Assembly (NCBI GenBank): GCA_963816185.1
Contig: CAWFJJ010000024.1
Coordinates: 544,001 to 608,000 of the forward strand
Source: Thermoanaerobaculia bacterium
Lineage (GTDB): Bacteria > Acidobacteriota > Thermoanaerobaculia > UBA5066
Direction: 5' to 3'
DNA length: 64,000 bases
Part shown: piece by piece, positions 1 to 64,000 of the stretch
Position numbering within the stretch: the stretch's first letter is position 1
How the letters are laid out: each line of letters opens with the position of its first letter
Program-made: the position numbers and the translations under genes
The notes under the pieces: generated by a model
Seen by the model: the letters and a program-made list of their open reading frames with translations, nothing else
What the model was told of the DNA's origin: nothing
Databases searched by the model: none

Positions 1-1272
1 GTGCTCACGCTCGACAAGCACGGAGAGACGGTCAAGGCAGAATTCTTTCGCTCGTTGATTCGGAGTCGCGCAAGACTGACGTACACGCAGGTAGGAGGGT
101 TGATCGAGGATTTCTTAGAAAGTGAAGAAGGAAACGCCTCTCGCAGCGCGGCGGCCGAGCCCTTGCCGCATTCACCTTCTAAGAAATCCCCGTTCTCTTC
201 GGACGTTGCTTCCATGCTCCGCGTCGCGCAGAAGGCGTCGGGTCTTCTCCGAGCAAAAAGATCCCGCCGCGGCTCCCTCGACTTCGACCTGCCGGACGCG
301 GACGTCATCCTCGGCGAAGGGGGAGACGTCGTCGAGATCATCCGGGCCGTGCGCAACGAGGCGCACCGCCTCATCGAGGAGTTCATGCTGGCCGCGAACG
401 AGGCAGTCGCCAAGCACCTCGAGTTCGTCCCGACGCCGGCTCTCTACCGCGTGCATGACAGGCCGGACGAGAGCCGCCTCGCGGACCTGAGGGTCGTGCT
501 CGGGCCGCTCGGCTACGACCTTCCCGAAGACGAGGAAGAGGTCACGCCCGCCACGTTCCAGACCATCCTCGACCAGGCGGCGGGAAAGCCCGAAGAGCGG
601 TTCGTCTCGGATCTCGTCCTGCGCGCCCAGAAGAAAGCCATCTACTCCGAGGAGTGCCGCGGGCACTACGCGCTCGCGGCGAAGCACTACTGCCACTTCA
701 CGTCGCCGATCAGGCGCTACCCGGACCTCCTCGTCCACCGGGCGCTCGTGGAGTGGCTCGCCATCCGCCGCCCGCCCGCCGCCGAGGAGGCGGAAGGGCG
801 CACGCGCTGGTTCCACGAGGCGGCGGCGCACTGTTCGTCGCGCGAGAGGCGCGCCGAGTCGGCCGAGCGCGAGGCCGTGGCGTGGAAGAAGTTCGTCTTC
901 CTGTCGTCGCGCGTGGGCGAGGAATTCTGGGCGTACGTCTCGGCGGTCGTGGGCTTCGGCCTCTTCGTCACGCTCGAGGACATCTACGTGGACGGCCTCG
1001 TGCCGATCTCGTCGCTCGAGGACGACTTCTATCGCTTCGAGGACGTCGAGCACCGTCTCGTGGGCTCCTCTTCGGGGCGCGTCTACCGGCTCGGGGACCG
1101 CCTCCGGGTGAAGCTCGTCAAGGCGGACGCGGAAAAGCGCGGCCTGGACTTCGTGCCTGTGGGCGACAGCGCCGGGCCGCGGCGAAAGAGCCGCGTCGAA
1201 GCCATCGAGCGGCAGCGACAGCAGCGCGGACGACGCCGGTCCCCCGCCCCACACGGCCGGGCGCGGCGATAG
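1..1272 (+). CDS. rnr: Ribonuclease R, C-terminal part (5' end outside window)
   Basis: RNB motifs AHRLIEEFMLAANEAVA and HFTSPIRRYPDLLVHR, then an S1 domain and a basic tail. Confidence 0.95.
   Translation: MLTLDKHGETVKAEFFRSLIRSRARLTYTQVGGLIEDFLESEEGNASRSAAAEPLPHSPSKKSPFSSDVASMLRVAQKASGLLRAKRSRRGSLDFDLPDADVILGEGGDVVEIIRAVRNEAHRLIEEFMLAANEAVAKHLEFVPTPALYRVHDRPDESRLADLRVVLGPLGYDLPEDEEEVTPATFQTILDQAAGKPEERFVSDLVLRAQKKAIYSEECRGHYALAAKHYCHFTSPIRRYPDLLVHRALVEWLAIRRPPAAEEAEGRTRWFHEAAAHCSSRERRAESAEREAVAWKKFVFLSSRVGEEFWAYVSAVVGFGLFVTLEDIYVDGLVPISSLEDDFYRFEDVEHRLVGSSSGRVYRLGDRLRVKLVKADAEKRGLDFVPVGDSAGPRRKSRVEAIERQRQQRGRRRSPAPHGRARR
108..189. repeat. AT-rich inverted repeat inside rnr (19-bp arms, 1 mismatch)
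   Basis: GGATTTCTTAGAAAGTGAA (108-126) and TTCACCTTCTAAGAAATCC (171-189) read directly; the same motif recurs at 58896. Confidence 0.85.
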
Positions 1273-4420: not shown

Positions 4421-4508
4421 CAGGCCTTTGAGCGCTTTGAAATGGAAGCCGGGGAGGCGATTCATACCCCTCTAGACTAAAGGAAAACGGCCGCGGACGG
4501 AGGCGACC

Positions 4509-4985
4509 ATGTGGAACGTCGAGGTCCTTACGCAGAGTACGGCGGCGATTTGCTGGGAGGCGTGCGCACGGATGATGTGGTACTGGAGGCACGCCTCCGA
4601 GTCTGCCGACGACCGGCGCGCTTCGTACCTCAGGAAGGCGGGCCAGTTCGCGACGCTGAACCGAGGAATGCAGGAGCCGGAGATGAACATCTTTTACACG
4701 CAGCTCGAAATGCGCTCGAACCGGAGCGCCGGCGCGTCGGCTCTTCGCACCGCTTTGACGACCAGCCCGGTCGTTCTCGTCCTCGGGCGCCACGAAACAC
4801 GGCACGCCTGCCTCTGCGCGGGGTTCACGCCGGGGCGCCGGCCCACGTACCGGATCGTCAATCCCTGCTCCTCCCTGGCGATCGACTTCGTGACGGACAG
4901 CGAGGTCTGCACGGCGAGCGGGACGTCGGACATCGGGGCGCGAAATGTCGAGTCGCGAATGGGCAGCTGGATCTGGTTCTGGTGA
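4509..4985 (+). CDS. Papain-like cysteine protease (AvrRpt2/C70-C39-like)
   Basis: Q-x5-CWEACARM nucleophile motif, RHA (His), IVNP (Asn); GGAGG SD. Confidence 0.7.
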   Translation: MWNVEVLTQSTAAICWEACARMMWYWRHASESADDRRASYLRKAGQFATLNRGMQEPEMNIFYTQLEMRSNRSAGASALRTALTTSPVVLVLGRHETRHACLCAGFTPGRRPTYRIVNPCSSLAIDFVTDSEVCTASGTSDIGARNVESRMGSWIWFW

Positions 4986-58760: not shown

Positions 58761-61520
58761 GTGACGATCGCATCCGGTGTCCGCCTGGGACCGTACGAAG
58801 TACTTGCGCCTCTCGGGGCGGGAGGGATGGGAGAGGTCTACCGGGCGAAAGACCCTCGCCTCAATCGTGATGTCGCGATCAAGGTACTGCCGGGAGATTT
58901 CTTAGAAGGTGAAGAGCGCAAGGCGCGTTTCGAGCGAGAAGCTCGCTTGCTTGCGGCGCTGAATCACCCCGGCATCGCCGCCATCTACTCGTTCGAAGAA
59001 ATCCCCGGTTCTCCTTCTCGCCACATCCTCGTCATGGAGCTCGTCGAGGGCGAGGGTCTCGACCAGAGGATCGGCAGCCCCTCTCTTTCCCTCGAAGAAT
59101 CCCTTTCCATCGCCCGGCAGATCGCCGAGGCTCTGGAGGCGGCGCACGAGAAGGGGATCGTGCACCGGGACCTGAAGCCTGCGAACGTGAAGATCAGTCA
59201 CGACGGGCGGGTGAAGCTGCTGGACTTCGGCCTCGCGAAGATCTTCGAGAGCGAGGCAGGCGGCTCGAACCCGTCGATCTCGTATTCGCCGACGCTGACG
59301 GCGCGCGCCACGGCGGCGGGCGTCATCCTCGGGACGGCGGCGTACATGTCGCCCGAGCAGGCGCGGGGCAAGGCGGTGGACAAGCGGACGGACATCTGGG
59401 CGTTCGGGTGCGTGCTCTACGAGATGCTTGCGGGGAAGAGAGCCTTCGAAGGCGAGACGGTCTCCGACACGCTCGCGTCGATCCTCAGGGGAGAGCCGGA
59501 CTGGGCGGCATTGCCGCCGGGAACACCGGAGAAAGTCAAAGAGATTCTTGGAAAGTGCCTGAGGCGCGAGGCGAAGCAGCGCCTCCACGACATCGCGGAT
59601 GCGCGCCTCGACCTCGAGGAATTGAAGGCAGCCGGCGCGTCGAGATCCTCCGGTCAATTTCCCTTCGAAGAAAAGACCGCGGTGCCGAGCCCAACGGTGG
59701 CAAGCGCAGAAGGGACGAGTCGTGAGCGAGGGAGCAAGAGGTCTCTCTATCTCTCCTGGGCGGTTGCGGCCGCGTTCGCGGCCGCGGCCGGGGTGCTCGC
59801 CCTGCGCGCTCGCGCCCCCGAAGTGCGCGTGTATCGCGCGACGATCAACCCTCCCGAGGGCACGGTCTTCGCCGTCGACACGACACAGCCTGGGCCGGCG
59901 GTTCTCTCGCCTGACGGACGGAAGCTTGCGTTCACGGCTCGCGGAGTCGACGCGAAGGTCAGGTTGTATGTCCAGCCCCTTGACTCCACCGGGGCGCAGC
60001 CCCTGCCGGGGACGGAGAACGCCCAGTACCCGTTCTGGTCTCCAGACAGCCGCTTTCTCGCATTCGGAGCCGATCAGAAGCTCAAGAGGATCGAGGCGTC
60101 CGGCGGACCGCCGTCGATCCTCTGCCCGACGACCGATTTTCCGAAAGGGGGAACGTGGAGCGCTCGAGGCGTGATCGTCTTTGCTCCCGCGGCCGGCGGG
60201 CCGCTCCACGTCGTCTCCGAGAACGGAGGCGAGTCGAAGCCGATCACGAAGCTCGACGAGAAGCGGGGCGAGAATTCCCACAGGCTCCCGTTCTTCCTTC
60301 CGGACGGGCGGCACTTCCTTTACCTCGCCCGCCTCGGGAGCGCGCTCCCGGCTGAGGGGCATCAGATCTTCGTGGGCTCCCTCGACGGCGGCGAATCGAA
60401 GGCTCTCCTCAGTTCGCCGACAGCCGCGGAGTACGCGTCCGGTTATCTCCTCTTCCTGCGCGACCGCGACCTGATGGCGCAGCGCTTCGATCCCAAGAGT
60501 CTCGCTCTTGAGGGGGAGGCGCACCCCGTGGCCGAGAACGTCAGCGTGCTCACCGGCGCCGCCAAAGCGAACTTTTCCGCCTCGCAGGCCGGGGTTCTCG
60601 TGGCCCAGATCGGAGCGGCCGTCGTCCTCGGAGCACAGCTCGAATGGACGGACCGTGCGGGGAAGCTGCTCGGCACGTTGGCGGATCGCGATGCCTACGA
60701 CGAGGTCAGTGTTTCACCGGACGGGCGCAGCGTCGCCGTGTCGCAGATCGATCTGAAGGCGGGCACACACGACATCTGGATCTGCGACGTCGCTCGGAAC
60801 CTGAAGACGCGATTCACGTTCGATCCGGGCGAGGAGCTCACGCCGCGTTGGGCCCCGGGCGGCCGCTCGCTCGTTTACGTAGCCGGCCGCGGCGCGCAGC
60901 AGGGACTTTATCGGAAGGAGATAGGAGGCTCCGGCGTGGAGGAGCTGCTGTACGCGTCGGAAACCGTCAAGGTCCCGAGCGGCTTCTCGCCGGATGGAAA
61001 ACTTCTCGCTTTCAACGAGGTCGGAACCGACACCGGCCTCGACATCTGGATCCTGCCGCTGACGGGGGACCGCAAGCCATATCCGTTTCTCAAGACGAAT
61101 TTCAATGAGTCGAACGCCGTTTTCTCCTCTGACGGAAAGTGGCTTGCCTATAACTCGAACGAATCCGGGCGGGCCGAGGTCTACGTCACTCCGTTTCCGG
61201 GTCCCGGCCGCAAGTGGCAGGTCTCGACGCAGGGAGGGGCGTATCCCGAGTGGCGACAGGGTGGCCGGGAAATCCTCTACCAGGACCTCAAGACCAACGA
61301 GATCATGGCCGTCCCGGTAGCCTTCAAGGGCGACGCCCCGGACTTCGGTGCGGCCCGGGAGCTCTTCACGGCAACGCCGCCGCTGGCCGGGTTCGCGCGA
61401 CGCTACGACGCGACCGCCGACGGGAAGAAGTTCATCATGATCCGCCCGAACCAAACGAGGGAGACGGGATCGCTCACGCTCGTCGTAGGCTGGACGGCGG
61501 AGCTCGAGGGAAAGAAGTGA
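58761..61520 (+). CDS. Ser/Thr receptor kinase with TolB/PD40 beta-propeller
   Basis: GAGGMG, HRDLKPAN, DFG, TM, repeated SPDG motifs. Confidence 0.95.
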   Translation: MTIASGVRLGPYEVLAPLGAGGMGEVYRAKDPRLNRDVAIKVLPGDFLEGEERKARFEREARLLAALNHPGIAAIYSFEEIPGSPSRHILVMELVEGEGLDQRIGSPSLSLEESLSIARQIAEALEAAHEKGIVHRDLKPANVKISHDGRVKLLDFGLAKIFESEAGGSNPSISYSPTLTARATAAGVILGTAAYMSPEQARGKAVDKRTDIWAFGCVLYEMLAGKRAFEGETVSDTLASILRGEPDWAALPPGTPEKVKEILGKCLRREAKQRLHDIADARLDLEELKAAGASRSSGQFPFEEKTAVPSPTVASAEGTSRERGSKRSLYLSWAVAAAFAAAAGVLALRARAPEVRVYRATINPPEGTVFAVDTTQPGPAVLSPDGRKLAFTARGVDAKVRLYVQPLDSTGAQPLPGTENAQYPFWSPDSRFLAFGADQKLKRIEASGGPPSILCPTTDFPKGGTWSARGVIVFAPAAGGPLHVVSENGGESKPITKLDEKRGENSHRLPFFLPDGRHFLYLARLGSALPAEGHQIFVGSLDGGESKALLSSPTAAEYASGYLLFLRDRDLMAQRFDPKSLALEGEAHPVAENVSVLTGAAKANFSASQAGVLVAQIGAAVVLGAQLEWTDRAGKLLGTLADRDAYDEVSVSPDGRSVAVSQIDLKAGTHDIWICDVARNLKTRFTFDPGEELTPRWAPGGRSLVYVAGRGAQQGLYRKEIGGSGVEELLYASETVKVPSGFSPDGKLLAFNEVGTDTGLDIWILPLTGDRKPYPFLKTNFNESNAVFSSDGKWLAYNSNESGRAEVYVTPFPGPGRKWQVSTQGGAYPEWRQGGREILYQDLKTNEIMAVPVAFKGDAPDFGAARELFTATPPLAGFARRYDATADGKKFIMIRPNQTRETGSLTLVVGWTAELEGKK
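58896..58915. repeat. Copy of the rnr AT-rich motif inside the kinase gene
   Basis: GATTTCTTAGAAGGTGAA(GA): 18/18 identical to the reverse complement of 171-188. Confidence 0.8.
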
Positions 61521-61527
61521 GCGAGAC

Positions 61528-64000
61528 GTGACGCTGGCGGCCGGCACGAAGCTCGGGACGTACGAGGTTCTGGCCCCGCTCGGCGCCGGGGGGATGGGAG
61601 AGGTCTACCGGGCGAAGGATCTTCGCCTCGGGCGCGACGTCGCTATCAAGGTCCTGCCGGAAGAATTCTTCGAAGATGAAGAGAGAAGGACCCGCTTCGA
61701 AAGAGAGGCGCGGACGCTTGCGAGTCTGAATCATCCGGGCGTCGCCGCGATCTATTCATTCGAAGAAATCCCTGGTTCCTCTGATTCCCCCGGCTCGCAC
61801 GTCCGCCACATTCTCGTGATGGAGCTCGTGGAGGGCGAGTCGCTACGCCAGCGGATCTCCGAGGGCGCCCTGCCGGTGCGCAAGGCCGTGGACCTCGGAG
61901 CCCAGATCGCGCGCGGCCTCGCGGCCGCCCACGAGAGCGGGATCGTCCATCGGGACCTCAAGCCGGAGAACGTCGTCCTCACGAAGGACGGGCGCGCGAA
62001 GATCCTCGACTTCGGCCTCGCGAAGCAGCGCGCCGCCACGCCTGAAGAGGACACGAAGTCGCCGACGCTCGCGAGAGCGACGGACGCCGGGACTCTCCTC
62101 GGGACCGTCGGGTACATGGCGCCCGAGCAGGTGAGAGGGCAGAGTGCCGACGCGCGGTCCGACATCTTCGCGTTCGGGTGTGTCCTCTTCGAGATGCTGA
62201 CGGGCCGGCGCGCGTTCAGGGGCGACTCCGCGATCGAAACCATGAACGCGATCCTGAAGGAGGAGCCGCCCGAGCCCGACGTTTCGGCGGCGAAGATTCC
62301 TCCCGACCTCGACCGGTTCATCCGGCACTGTCTCGAGAAGAATCCCGCCGAGCGGTTCCAGTCCGCGCGAGACGTCGCGTTCGACCTCGAGGCTCTCGCG
62401 GGGAGCTCGTCGACGGGCCGTGCCACAGCCGTCATGCCGTCCGGCGGCGGCCGTCGCTGGCGCGTCGTCGCGGCCGTGGTCGTCGCAGTCGCCGCGATCG
62501 TCGCGGCGCACGTCGCGGGCTTCCGCCGGGGCAAGAACGCGGCGGCCCCGGTCCCGTCGTTCGCGCAGCTCACGTTCCGGCAGGAACCGATTTTCACCGC
62601 GCGCCTCGCCCCGGACGGCAAGACGGTCGTCTTCAGCTCCGCTCCGTCCGGCAATGCTCCCGAGATCTTCTCGGTCCGCTCCGACTTCGCGGGCGCGAGC
62701 CCTCGCCGCCTCCTCTCCGGCCAGCTCCTCGCGATTTCGTCCCGCGGCGAGTTGGCCGTCCTGAGCCATGCGCGGTACCTCGCCCACAGCCTCTTCGAGG
62801 GCACGCTCGCGCGGATGCCGCTCGAAGGCGGCGCGCCGCGCGAGATCCTCGACGGCGTGCGCGAGGCCGAGTGGTCTCCGGACGGCTCCGATCTCGCGGT
62901 GATCCGCGCCGTGGGCGGGAAGGACCATCTCGAGTTCCCCGTCGGAAAGGTCCTCGCCGAGACGGGCGGGTACTTCAGCAATCCGCGCTTCTCCCCGCGC
63001 GGCGACCGGATCGCGTTCTTCGAGCACCCCTTCAAGTACGACGACCGAGGCGGGATCGCCTCCGTCGACCTCGCGGGCAAGAAGACGGTCCTTTCGGACG
63101 GGTATTGGGGAGAGGAGGGACTCGCGTGGTCGCCCGGCGGAGACGAGGTCATGTTTTCCGCCGGGACCGCGTACAACAACTTCAAGGTGTTCGCGGTCTC
63201 CCTCTCGGGCCGGCGGCGCGTCGCGCTCGAGAGCGCCGGGGGCCTGACGATCCACGACATCCGGGGCGACGGGCGCTGGCTCGCCACGCGGGACGACTTC
63301 TTCCGCGAAATGCCCGTCTTCGTACGCGGGCAGGCGCACGAACGGGACCTCTCCTGGCTCGACCTCTCCGACCCCGTGGCCTTCACGCGGGACGCGGGGA
63401 CTCTTCTCTTCATGGAGGAGAGCGGCAGCGTGGGCGTGAACTACGCCGTGTGCGTTCGCCAGACCGACGGGTCGCCCGTCGTCCGCCTCGGGGAGGGCGC
63501 CGCCGCCGACCTGTCGCCGGACGGCAAGTGGGCGCTCGCGAACGTTCCGACGACGCCGCAGCAGCTCGTTCTGTACCCCACGGGCGCGGGCGAGGCGCGA
63601 CGGCTCGAGCGTGCGGGACTCGTCGCGTTCGACTCCGCGCGGTTCTTCCCGGACGGCAAGCGAATTCTCACCTGCGGTCACGAAGAGGCCAAGGCCGTCC
63701 GCTGCTACGTCCAGGACGTCGCGTCGGGCGGGTCCCGGCCCTTGACGCCGGAGGGAACCACCGACGGATATCCCGCGCCCGACGGCAGGACGGTCGTGGT
63801 GAGGACCCCCGCCGGCGATCTCGCCCTCCATCCCGTAGACGGAGGCGAGGGGCGGCCCGTCACGGGCACGAAGCCCGGCGACACCGTCGTCCGCTGGAGC
63901 ATCGACGGGCGCTCGCTGTTCGTCGTGTCGGGCACGGAGGTCCCGGCGCGCGTCGAGCGCCTCGATCTCGCGACGGGCCGGCGAGAACCGGTTCGCACGC
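61528..64000 (+). CDS. Second Ser/Thr receptor kinase with propeller domain, 3'-truncated (absent from ORF track)
   Basis: Manual translation from GTG 61528: GAGGMG, HRDLKPEN, DFG, TM near 62460, SPDG repeats; no stop seen in the portions checked. Confidence 0.92.
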   Translation, partial: MTLAAGTKLGTYEVLAPLGAGGMGEVYRAKDLRLGRDVAIKVLPEEFFEDEERRTRFEREARTLASLNHPGVAAIYSFEEIPGSSDSPGSHVRHILVMELVEGESLRQRISEGALPVRKAVDLGAQIARGLAAAHESGIVHRDLKPENVVLTKDGRAKILDFGLAKQRAATPEEDTKSPTLARATDAGTLLGTVGYMAPEQVRGQSADARSDIFAFGCVLFEMLTGRRAFRGDSAIETMNAILKEEPPEPDVSAAKIPPDLDRFIRHCLEKNPAERFQSARDVAFDLEALAGSSSTGRATAVMPSGGGRRWRVVAAVVVAVAAIVAAHVAGFRRGKNAAAPVPSFAQLTFRQEPIFTARLAPDGKTVVFSSAPSGNAPEIFSVRSDFAGASPRRLLSGQLLAISSRGELAVLSHARYLAHSLFEGTLARMPLEGGAPREILDGVREAEWSPDGSDLAVIRAVGGKDHLEFPVGKVLAETGGYFSNPRFSPRGDRIAFFEHPFKYDDRGGIASVDLAGKKTVLSDGYWGEEGLAWSPGGDEVMFSAGTAYNNFKVFAVSLSGRRRVALESAGGLTIHDIRGDGRWLATRDDFFREMPVFVRGQAHERDLSWLDLSDPVAFTRDAGTLLFMEESGSVGVNYAVCVRQTDGSPVVRLGEGAAADLSPDGKWALANVPTTPQQLVLYPTGAGEARRLERAGLVAFDSARFFPDGKRILTCGHEEAKAVRCYVQDVASGGSRPLTPEGTTDGYPAPDGRTVVVRTPAGDLALHPVDGGEGRPVTGTKPGDTVVRWSIDGRSLFVVSGTEVPARVERLDLATGRREPVRT

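Follow-up and report, generated by a model that had tools for sequence, protein, structure and literature searches.

The few DNA-level signals that shape bacterial genomes as a whole include over-represented words such as repetitive extragenic palindromic (REP) sequences, DNA uptake sequences (DUS) and uptake signal sequences (USS), HIP1, Chi, and the sites of Noc or SlmA, and nearly all known examples stem from a few cultured groups. The word described here occurs in uncultured soil Acidobacteriota. It was found as an inverted pair of arms in rnr, the gene of RNase R, and as a single arm in a Ser/Thr kinase gene, both within a 64,000-nt stretch of a Thermoanaerobaculia genome (hereafter the window, G000:C24:544001-608000; assembly G000 comprises 5,088,052 bp in 30 contigs with 67.2% GC). 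Among the described systems closest to it, the DUS and USS uptake signals occur at about 1 per kb, Rickettsia palindromic elements (RPE) are conserved over their full length of about 100–150 bp, and the sites of Noc (NBS), SlmA (SBS), and MatP (matS) are palindromes of 12–16 bp present in tens of copies and excluded from or confined to the terminus. Spacing peaks at 71 and 110 bp are reported for inverted REP doublets (REPINs; PMC3116915), and an orientation bias within genes for known uptake sequences (PMC2346458). The cyanobacterial HIP1 (GCGATCGC) is an 8-bp true palindrome tied to methyltransferases and met about once per gene. At orthologous sites, the arms of the word studied here have been kept as DNA sequence in spite of codon bias; some of them arose in place without insertion, and the family is depleted around the replication origin. 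We tentatively read it as a selected, lineage-specific protein-recognition word and not as an active miniature inverted-repeat transposable element (MITE).

The left arm in rnr and its inverted partner are separated by 44 bp and differ by one mismatch (positions in Table 1). Both lie in the frame of the rnr open reading frame (ORF), which encodes DFLESEE...HSPSKKS at this place. This arrangement had been reported by a first-pass annotation made from the letters alone, and it was confirmed here together with the copy noted 59 kb away in the kinase gene: the 18 bases at 58896–58913 are identical to the reverse complement of the right arm. When the window was searched at up to three mismatches, positions 108–126, 171–189, and 58895–58913 alone were returned, and 0 of 100 dinucleotide shuffles gave a match. 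The interior of the rnr pair has no second copy in G000 and no fold of its own (z +0.65).

Genome-wide, the core of the arm, TTCTTAGAA, has 337 copies in G000, with ~4 expected by our own base-composition arithmetic. The 18-mer GATTTCTTAGAAGGTGAA, which is the consensus and stands in a purine-rich setting, gave 15, 48, 116, and 239 matches at up to 0, 1, 2, and 3 mismatches, respectively; the count at two mismatches was the one that the first-pass annotation had proposed. At up to four mismatches, 427 matches were obtained vs. 37 for the reversed word run as a control, and at up to five, 725 vs. 165. The family is therefore estimated at ~390–560 arms in G000. The supposition that the repeat is a genome-wide feature of the DNA and not a peptide motif is borne out by these copies and by the use of all four stop-free frames; a handful of copies genome-wide, accompanied by the same peptide in distant orthologues, is not what was found. 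The annotation had also not recognised the word as a described family, and the literature on Acidobacteria MITEs and Thermoanaerobaculia palindromes, by title and abstract, yielded no description of it.

The word extends over ~18–30 bp and consists of a purine-rich run, GAT TTCTTAGAA GGTGAA, and then often GAGGG. Conservation of the arms spans from ~4 nt outside the core to ~11 nt inside it. The outer side is GAAGAG-like and purine-rich, and 99 of the 337 outer flanks contain at least 80% purines. The word is asymmetric, and only TTCTnAGAA inside it is symmetric. Single arms are the majority (215 of the 337 core copies). Where looser arms lie within 400 bp of each other, 77 pairs are convergent, 3 are divergent, and 35 are direct. 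Pairs with exact cores are convergent in 61 cases vs. 4 divergent, and their spacing has a mode at 74–76 bp, with 19 of the 61 convergent pairs in the range of 73–78 bp. Among the matches listed from other genomes, 24 of 106 GC-rich loci with the exact 18-mer have a partner within ~130 nt. Arms built of tandem short units were considered and rejected, as merely weak periodicity of 3 and 6 nt was detected.

All genomes compared are metagenome-assembled genomes (MAGs), and the counts in relatives use exact words only. The exact 12-mer TTTCTTAGAAGG was present in all 28 other genomes of the genus with 21–210 copies each, about equally on both strands (reversed control 0–3), and in 7 of 8 genomes of the sister genus with 1–16 copies. 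It was detected in none of 26 genomes from eight other genera of the family and in none of 12 genomes from two other families of the order. Across one genome per GTDB species, the exact 18-mer occurs at at least 118 loci, 106 of which are GC-rich. Most titles among the matches listed belong to Thermoanaerobaculia or Acidobacteriota MAGs; single matches among them fall in Bacteroidales, Winogradskyella, Pelagibacter, Aquifex, and other unrelated records. The word is a sharp genus marker for binning.

The history of the rnr copy was followed through its orthologues, which were intact in all 31 relatives searched. Each of the 18 orthologues of the genus carries [DEN]F[LF]E at the place of the left arm. 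The stretch from RLTYT to MLRVA measures 156 nt in the window, 87–213 nt in the 16 genus orthologues in which it could be delimited, and 96–99 nt in all 11 orthologues taken from two further families of the order (two of these, G019 and G024, are unpublished; the other nine agree). The window gene is longer than the 11 outgroup orthologues by 57–60 nt, an in-frame insertion, and the alignment suggested by the first-pass annotation thus upheld its idea of an expanded RNase R loop. The interior varies from near nothing to ~100 nt among the 18 orthologues; it was repeatedly shortened, lengthened, or lost between species, and the arms were mostly retained. In rnr of the sister genus, both arms are present and their cores are exact, and a 20-nt block of the interior is shared with two species of the window's genus; the rnr unit is therefore older than the split of the genera. 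Native RLLE, ELLE, or AFFQGEE is aligned to the left arm in relatives without the word, and genera without the word have AAFFQGEE or AELLEK there, so that the left arm looks converted from a native near-match. The left arm would then have evolved in place from a native FFxGEE/LLE-like stretch, and the right arm with the interior would be extra DNA acquired before the split from the sister genus. RNase R probably tolerates this addition as a surface loop, of which the interior may since have drifted and been trimmed with the arms retained. The locus resembles RPE in that a palindromic repeat stands in frame in genes as extra surface residues, here in rnr and in the dTDP-glucose dehydratase gene. 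Unlike RPE, the present family has the arms alone in common, and the arms in the EPSP synthase and kinase genes are not insertions.

The arms were retained with codons that are rare in this genome. Genes were called with our own crude ORF-based caller (3995 genes, 85.6% coding, 14% intergenic). Leu is encoded by TTA at 9 of 15 positions in the rnr arms vs. 0.3% of Leu codons across these gene calls, which bears out the remark that this codon is atypical here. Likewise, Asp is encoded by GAT in 12 of 12 cases (17.9% genome-wide), Glu by GAA in 14 of 16 (20.3%), and Gly by GGT in 7 of 10 (6.8%), and the rare codons TCA CCT TCT AAG AAA of the right arm are retained in most rnr orthologues. Four-fold sites of rnr are 0.53–0.81 identical to the window copy, with a saturation estimate of 0.39. 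HIP1 (PMC5861425, PMC4390886) is likewise extremely abundant and is maintained by selection at orthologous positions, some of them in coding sequence; unlike it, the arm word is asymmetric, at least 18 bp long, paired, and far rarer.

Origin in place was also seen elsewhere. The EPSP synthase arm ATTTTCTTAGAAGGTGTG (IFLEGV) is found without an insertion or deletion across 29 species; its exact 9-mer core is present in 12 of the 29, and seven more differ at the central base alone. In G003, the arm was replaced via a cluster of substitutions. The alignment of EIFLEGV with TIEAGRT from a genus without the word runs column for column with no gap (five outgroups compared, one of which, G019, is unpublished). 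Four kinase paralogues have DFLE[GS]EE with TTA where most members of the subfamily have EEFFEGEER in the same columns; the window kinase copy is therefore an in-place conversion and not an insertion. Other host proteins gave a mixed picture. HisRS shows no gap, but the arm there deviates by 3 mismatches; in AlaRS, a gap of 8 residues adjoins the arm; and in dTDP-glucose dehydratase the arm is accompanied by 10–14 extra residues relative to solved structures. The last was flagged as free of insertion by arithmetic on Pfam spans, which is too crude for such a test.

For a wider comparison, G000 was aligned with 784 kb of the relative G003, which gave 78 syntenic arms: 27 were kept (up to 4 mismatches), 19 were weak, 13 were non-motif, 8 were partly gapped, and 11 were absent. 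Identity of at least 15/18 was reached by 43 of the 78 arms, vs. 24 of 78 control 18-mers just outside and 18 of 78 just inside, the value for the arms being somewhat inflated by ascertainment because they had been chosen by closeness to the consensus in G000. The whole element region evolves much faster (0.52–0.65 identity) than the sequence 100–150 bp outward (0.84). One pair of G000 is missing from five relatives.

No copy in G000 shows recent copying. Between equally spaced pairs, the identity of the interiors drops to that of shuffles beyond ~11 nt from the core. Of the 61 interiors, most are unique in the genome; the remainder contain other, nested repeats or give only short weak matches. 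The 75 convergent arm pairs that lie 0.4–6 kb apart in G000 enclose ordinary genes, and no transposase domain was found in five singly enclosed genes. The outer edge of the arms is fuzzy, and no evident direct repeat was seen at one clean gain compared with five relatives. A profile search for Y1 transposases (PF01797) found none in G000. An active MITE or REPIN is contradicted by the unrelated interiors, by the lack of a cognate transposase in our searches, by arms that arose in place without insertion, and by retention of the arms against mutation pressure over the age of the genus. The MITE-like reading of the first-pass annotation finds little support, no parent element having been found in G000 either.

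An extinct element has to be weighed separately. A REPIN- or MITE-like selfish unit of arm, interior, and arm might have spread in the ancestor of the two genera and lost its enzyme, its copies now being decaying remnants deleted at differing rates. Several observations agree with such an origin: the convergent excess of 77 vs. 3 and the sharp spacing mode, which resembles the REPIN peaks (PMC3116915); the stop codons of same-strand genes that end within 200 bp outside an arm, 42 of 66 of which lie 10–60 bp away; the presence or absence of units as wholes between species; the ten-fold variation of copy number within the genus; and interiors with nothing in common, as if copying had ended long ago. 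Y1 transposases fit as well: nine of the ten genera of the family have them, but within the window's genus they were found in only 4 of 28 relatives and, as noted, not in G000. Neutral decay, however, is contradicted by the retention of arms at orthologous sites in spite of strong pressure from GC content and codon use, which remnants should not show, and some arms came without any insertion. The six Y1 genes inspected, three each in this genus and the sister genus, lie between GGGTCAGGTC... repeats, which differ from the arm. Single arms are as intact as paired ones (3.87 vs. 3.63 mismatches in 9 flanking positions, P = 0.24), whereas REPIN singlets are more decayed, and a single arm is not palindromic (with its flanks it folds no better than shuffles, z +1.38 and +0.47). 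Finally, a true MITE-like family of G000, described below, is not depleted near the origin, and the arm family is. REP and REPIN with their REP-associated tyrosine transposase (RAYT; PMC3116915, PMC3733652) have much in common with the arms: the word is short, over-represented, and present hundreds of times, it mostly forms inverted doublets of preferred spacing, it is sited after genes and occasionally inside them, including repair and housekeeping genes, and it persists vertically. The arm family differs from them by a non-palindromic single unit without a GTAG or CGTC tag, by the failure to find a RAYT in G000 and the other repeats around the Y1 genes of relatives, by an intragenic location of half of the arms, by singles kept like doublets, and by unrelated interiors. 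On balance, we consider a purely fossil family rather unlikely; an old repeat with later co-opted arms may, however, unite the two, in which case a fossil mobile origin and a recognition word both hold.

Other repeats were encountered during these searches. The Y1 (IS200/RAYT-like) genes are bounded by inverted repeats of 26–45 bp starting with GGGTCAGGTC (e.g., L281:1401-2395, L282:1932-2950, and L285:1964-2983); such genes were found in all 17 genomes of one genus, in 7 of the 8 sister-genus genomes, and in 4 of 28 relatives of the window's genus. The 49 copies of a second repeat family of ~150 bp (G000:C25:104917-105135) are 72–98% identical and contain a long internal inverted repeat; at several loci this family is nested between TTCTTAGAA arms, and its interiors are conserved. 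A third family of ~100 bp (G000:C28:225098-225260) has 13 copies with up to 98% identity and is nested between an arm pair. Both nested families look like genuine MITE-type repeats. A cassette encoding a 23S intervening-sequence (IVS) protein was rejected, the lone sub-threshold PF05635 match lying 3 kb from any arm.

With respect to genes, the description of the repeat as coding-embedded holds for 164 of the 337 core copies; the other 173 are intergenic, which is far above the intergenic fraction of the genome. Coding copies use the four stop-free frames unevenly (FLE 45, [FL]LR 38, LLR 23, SKK 58; P = 0.0014), and single arms show no preference for the gene strand (84 same, 81 opposite). A motif acting at the level of the peptide was ruled out by the use of these four frames and both strands. 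Twenty host proteins, picked as long, high-scoring genes and thus not a fair sample, were compared with Pfam, and 19 matched a family; they include ValRS, AspRS-type, AlaRS, and HisRS, UvrD/PcrA, a UvrA-like ATPase, an AddA-like helicase-nuclease, a DEAD helicase, and the dTDP-glucose dehydratase. The arms account for the unusual linkers, acidic (EDFLEGEE) or rich in Ser and Lys (SSPSKKSS), that numerous proteins of the genus contain.

The same placement bears on an element acting in RNA, in which pairing of the two arms in the transcript would end transcription, stabilise the RNA, or present a site to RNase III. The rnr pair does fold through its arms as a long hairpin (-39.7 kcal/mol, z -4.2), and many pairs follow directly after stop codons. 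Against a transcript-level role stand the prevalence of single arms and their indifference to gene strand, and interiors that are not self-complementary (mean z -0.55; 3 of 41 pairs below -2). A 20-kb stretch with 12 arms gave no Rfam match at E up to 1, and a terminator scan of a 20-kb test region predicted 22 sites vs. 14.5 ± 4.4 in shuffles, none of them, among the sites listed, at arm pairs. A long hairpin continuing through the interior or the outer flanks was likewise rejected, complementarity to the own partner and to other elements being equal (0.32 vs. 0.33; 0.30 vs. 0.31). Both the peptide motif and the RNA element are out as general explanations because of the frame and strand use, and we regard the latter as very improbable.

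The arms are distributed unevenly along the chromosome (variance/mean 3.2 in 50-kb bins of G000), with an overall density of ~1 per 12 kb (427 arms in 5.09 Mb). Origin positions were inferred from dnaA alone, plus a weak skew switch in G000. Contig C29, which carries dnaA, has 8 arms vs. 39.2 expected (P = 1.6e-9), a depletion of ~5-fold, and one of the eight lies in a gene. This contig is syntenic with relatives at 78–92% identity, its intergenic fraction is the highest of the eight largest contigs, and the 150-bp repeat family is not depleted on it (4 copies vs. 4.5 expected). Three further genomes gave the same result. In G011, 49 of 50 exact 15-mers are on a contig of 3.88 Mb and 1 of 50 is on the dnaA contig of ~0.9 Mb (P = 3.7e-4); in G039, 1 of 60 exact words lies within 200 kb of dnaA (P = 0.012); and in G038, of the 100 of 101 14-mer matches listed, 98 are on the main contig and 1 is on the dnaA contig. 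Contigs of G000 with GC below 0.655 (164 kb) contain 1 arm vs. 13.8 expected. Mapping relative to the origin, as the first-pass annotation had proposed, thus revealed the depletion around dnaA; for orientation, it revealed no link with GC skew in G000. Polarity of the KOPS or Chi type was rejected accordingly, as arm orientation in G000 follows neither GC skew nor gene strand. Runs of equal orientation were detected in G000 (P = 0.002) and are not due to gene strand; none were seen by eye in G039. At G011:C1:2198887-2546611, 15 consecutive 12-mers that span 350 kb all point the same way (P = 0.005 in shuffled data), and other long runs lie nearby.

Density and origin depletion weigh against a plain uptake signal of the DUS/USS type, in which the competence machinery prefers DNA bearing the word and the word accumulates by biased transformation. 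Several properties of the family fit this model: it is lineage-specific, strand-equal, and far above chance; it arises in genes by substitution and forms inverted pairs directly after genes; and it is nearly absent from the low-GC contigs, which are possibly recent imports. ComEC was detected in 26 of 28 genus relatives and in G000, and DprA in 5 of 5 genomes checked. G034 (99% complete, 360 contigs), the one near-complete member of the genus in which two models gave no ComEC match, has the fewest copies (21), a single data point; as a natural experiment on ComEC loss, it was set aside, being one genome only and still having DprA. ComEC was found in all 10 genera, including equally the 8 without the word, and is thus not discriminating. 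The arm density of ~1 per 12 kb is about ten times lower than that of the known signals. The word is asymmetric and at least 18 bp long, longer than theirs, and its pairs stand ~75 bp apart without a compact terminator stem. The origin depletion seen in four genomes has no place in the uptake model. Arms also lack the in-gene orientation bias reported for known uptake sequences (PMC2346458). The features in common with DUS of Neisseriaceae and USS of Pasteurellaceae are thus a lineage-specific word on both strands, in-gene origin by substitution, inverted pairs after genes, and rarity in atypical DNA. The first-pass annotation had offered a protein-binding or uptake signal as one option; genus-wide conservation of the arms at the DNA level favours the option as a whole, and its plain uptake half is weakened by density and origin depletion. 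An uptake signal therefore appears unlikely to us.

Depletion near the origin would be expected of repair scars, in which the two ends of a chromosome break each receive a templated patch before they are joined, leaving inverted arms around filler; such events would be commoner far from the origin, where no sister copy is at hand. This proposal accommodates the fixed orientation of the pairs, the unrelated interiors, and the fuzzy, variable-length purine-repeat outer parts. It offers no candidate for the enzyme or the template, leaves the 75-bp spacing mode unexplained, and could hardly produce length-neutral arm replacements in essential genes. Its probability is very low in our opinion.

We return to the reading of the word as one that a protein recognizes. 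Given hundreds of copies, some even in essential genes, and few near the origin, the family looks more like a signal read by the cell than like a jumping gene. Under this reading, which with a function linked to chromosome position accommodates most of the evidence, a DNA-binding factor peculiar to the lineage would recognize the word on double-stranded DNA and may often use two facing sites, and the sites would be maintained by selection or biased transmission. The sites of Noc, SlmA, and MatP offer a parallel, since they too are sequence-specific, evolve in place including in genes, and vary in density from origin to terminus; unlike them, the arms number in the hundreds, are asymmetric and often paired, and are excluded from the origin region. 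A role tied to chromosome position, in organisation, segregation, or repair of the bulk of the chromosome vs. the origin region, is our leading candidate for its function, though on the unlikely side. The more specific idea that the factor marks the whole chromosome bar the origin region, as a mirror image of nucleoid-occlusion sites, is still more doubtful.

Several observations weigh against recognition by a protein. The convergent excess and the spacing mode of ~75 bp are what a transposon with terminal repeats would be expected to leave, and whole units of arm, interior, and arm are present or absent between species. The arm brings 10–35 extra residues in rnr and dTDP-glucose dehydratase. 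The range of exact 12-mer copies within the genus, ten-fold, resembles a selfish repeat more than a fixed set of sites, and it is not obvious what purine-rich flanks that vary in sequence would contribute to a binding site. The reader protein, the central step, is one that we infer. The results on gene placement rest on the crude ORF caller, and the ascertainment bias mentioned above flatters arm conservation.

The family unites features that are usually separate, namely, paired repeats, in-place origin in essential genes, conservation against codon bias, and an origin-to-bulk density contrast of ~five-fold or stronger. If the reading as a mark of the chromosome outside the origin region is true, the pressure to carry it was strong enough to rewrite codons of EPSP synthase and to keep loops in RNase R, and it would represent a new kind of chromosome-position signal in a phylum with none known. 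If a protein does read the word, the family would offer a ready means of testing how this lineage organises its chromosome or exchanges DNA.

The arms were also encountered in environmental data. Contigs from four soil RNA-library runs (X1–X4) cover 7–11% of the sampled words at a likeness of at least 92%. At L033:1829-1871 and 4500-4532, contigs with unrelated flanks pile up on the arms to a depth of 70–120 vs. ~10–20 nearby; at L033:1845, many unrelated contigs match the arm and then diverge. These libraries therefore contain arms that stem from numerous loci of related organisms. As proof of transcription these contigs were rejected, as they show the mere occurrence of arms in the libraries. 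In two relatives (L053:1-318 and L059:1-318), an arm encodes a Ser-rich SSSPSKKSSSS linker directly after a segment read by eye as a ComEA-like helix-hairpin-helix, ...VKGVGSGKKLDSLKKVLKL....

Table 1. Arms, associated segments, and host genes in the window (positions counted from the first letter of the 64,000-nt stretch).
Feature	Position	Strand	Basis or remark
rnr (RNase R), last 423 codons, host gene	1..1272	+	ORF and gene call; full gene G000:C24:542933-545272
Left arm GGATTTCTTAGAAAGTGAA, translated (E)DFLESE	108..126	+	One mismatch vs. the family 18-mer
Pair interior, GC-rich, in frame, encodes EGNASRSAAAEPLP	127..170		Sequence unlike the interiors of other copies
Right arm, reverse complement of GGATTTCTTAGAAGGTGAA, translated HSPSKKS	171..189	-	Window sequence and mismatch search
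Outer flank CCGTTCTCTTCGGACG, pyrimidine-rich	190..205		Same as the outer flank common to other copies, by direct reading
Single arm in Ser/Thr kinase gene, GDFLEGEE	58895..58913	+	Kinase paralogue alignment: no insertion
Host Ser/Thr kinase gene, 919 aa, member of a large paralogue family	58761..61520	+	ORF and paralogue alignment
Arm-like word GAATTCTTCGAAGATGAA with 3 mismatches, at the corresponding position of the following kinase paralogue, translated EEFFEDEE	61663..61680	+	Genome search (C24:605663), paralogue alignment

The kinase gene with the single arm opens a cluster of Ser/Thr kinase genes that runs from window positions 58761–64000 on to G000:C24:634000. It comprises at least eight paralogues with TolB/WD40-like C-terminal parts, and the conserved peptide LPEEFFEGEER is encoded by most genes of the cluster.

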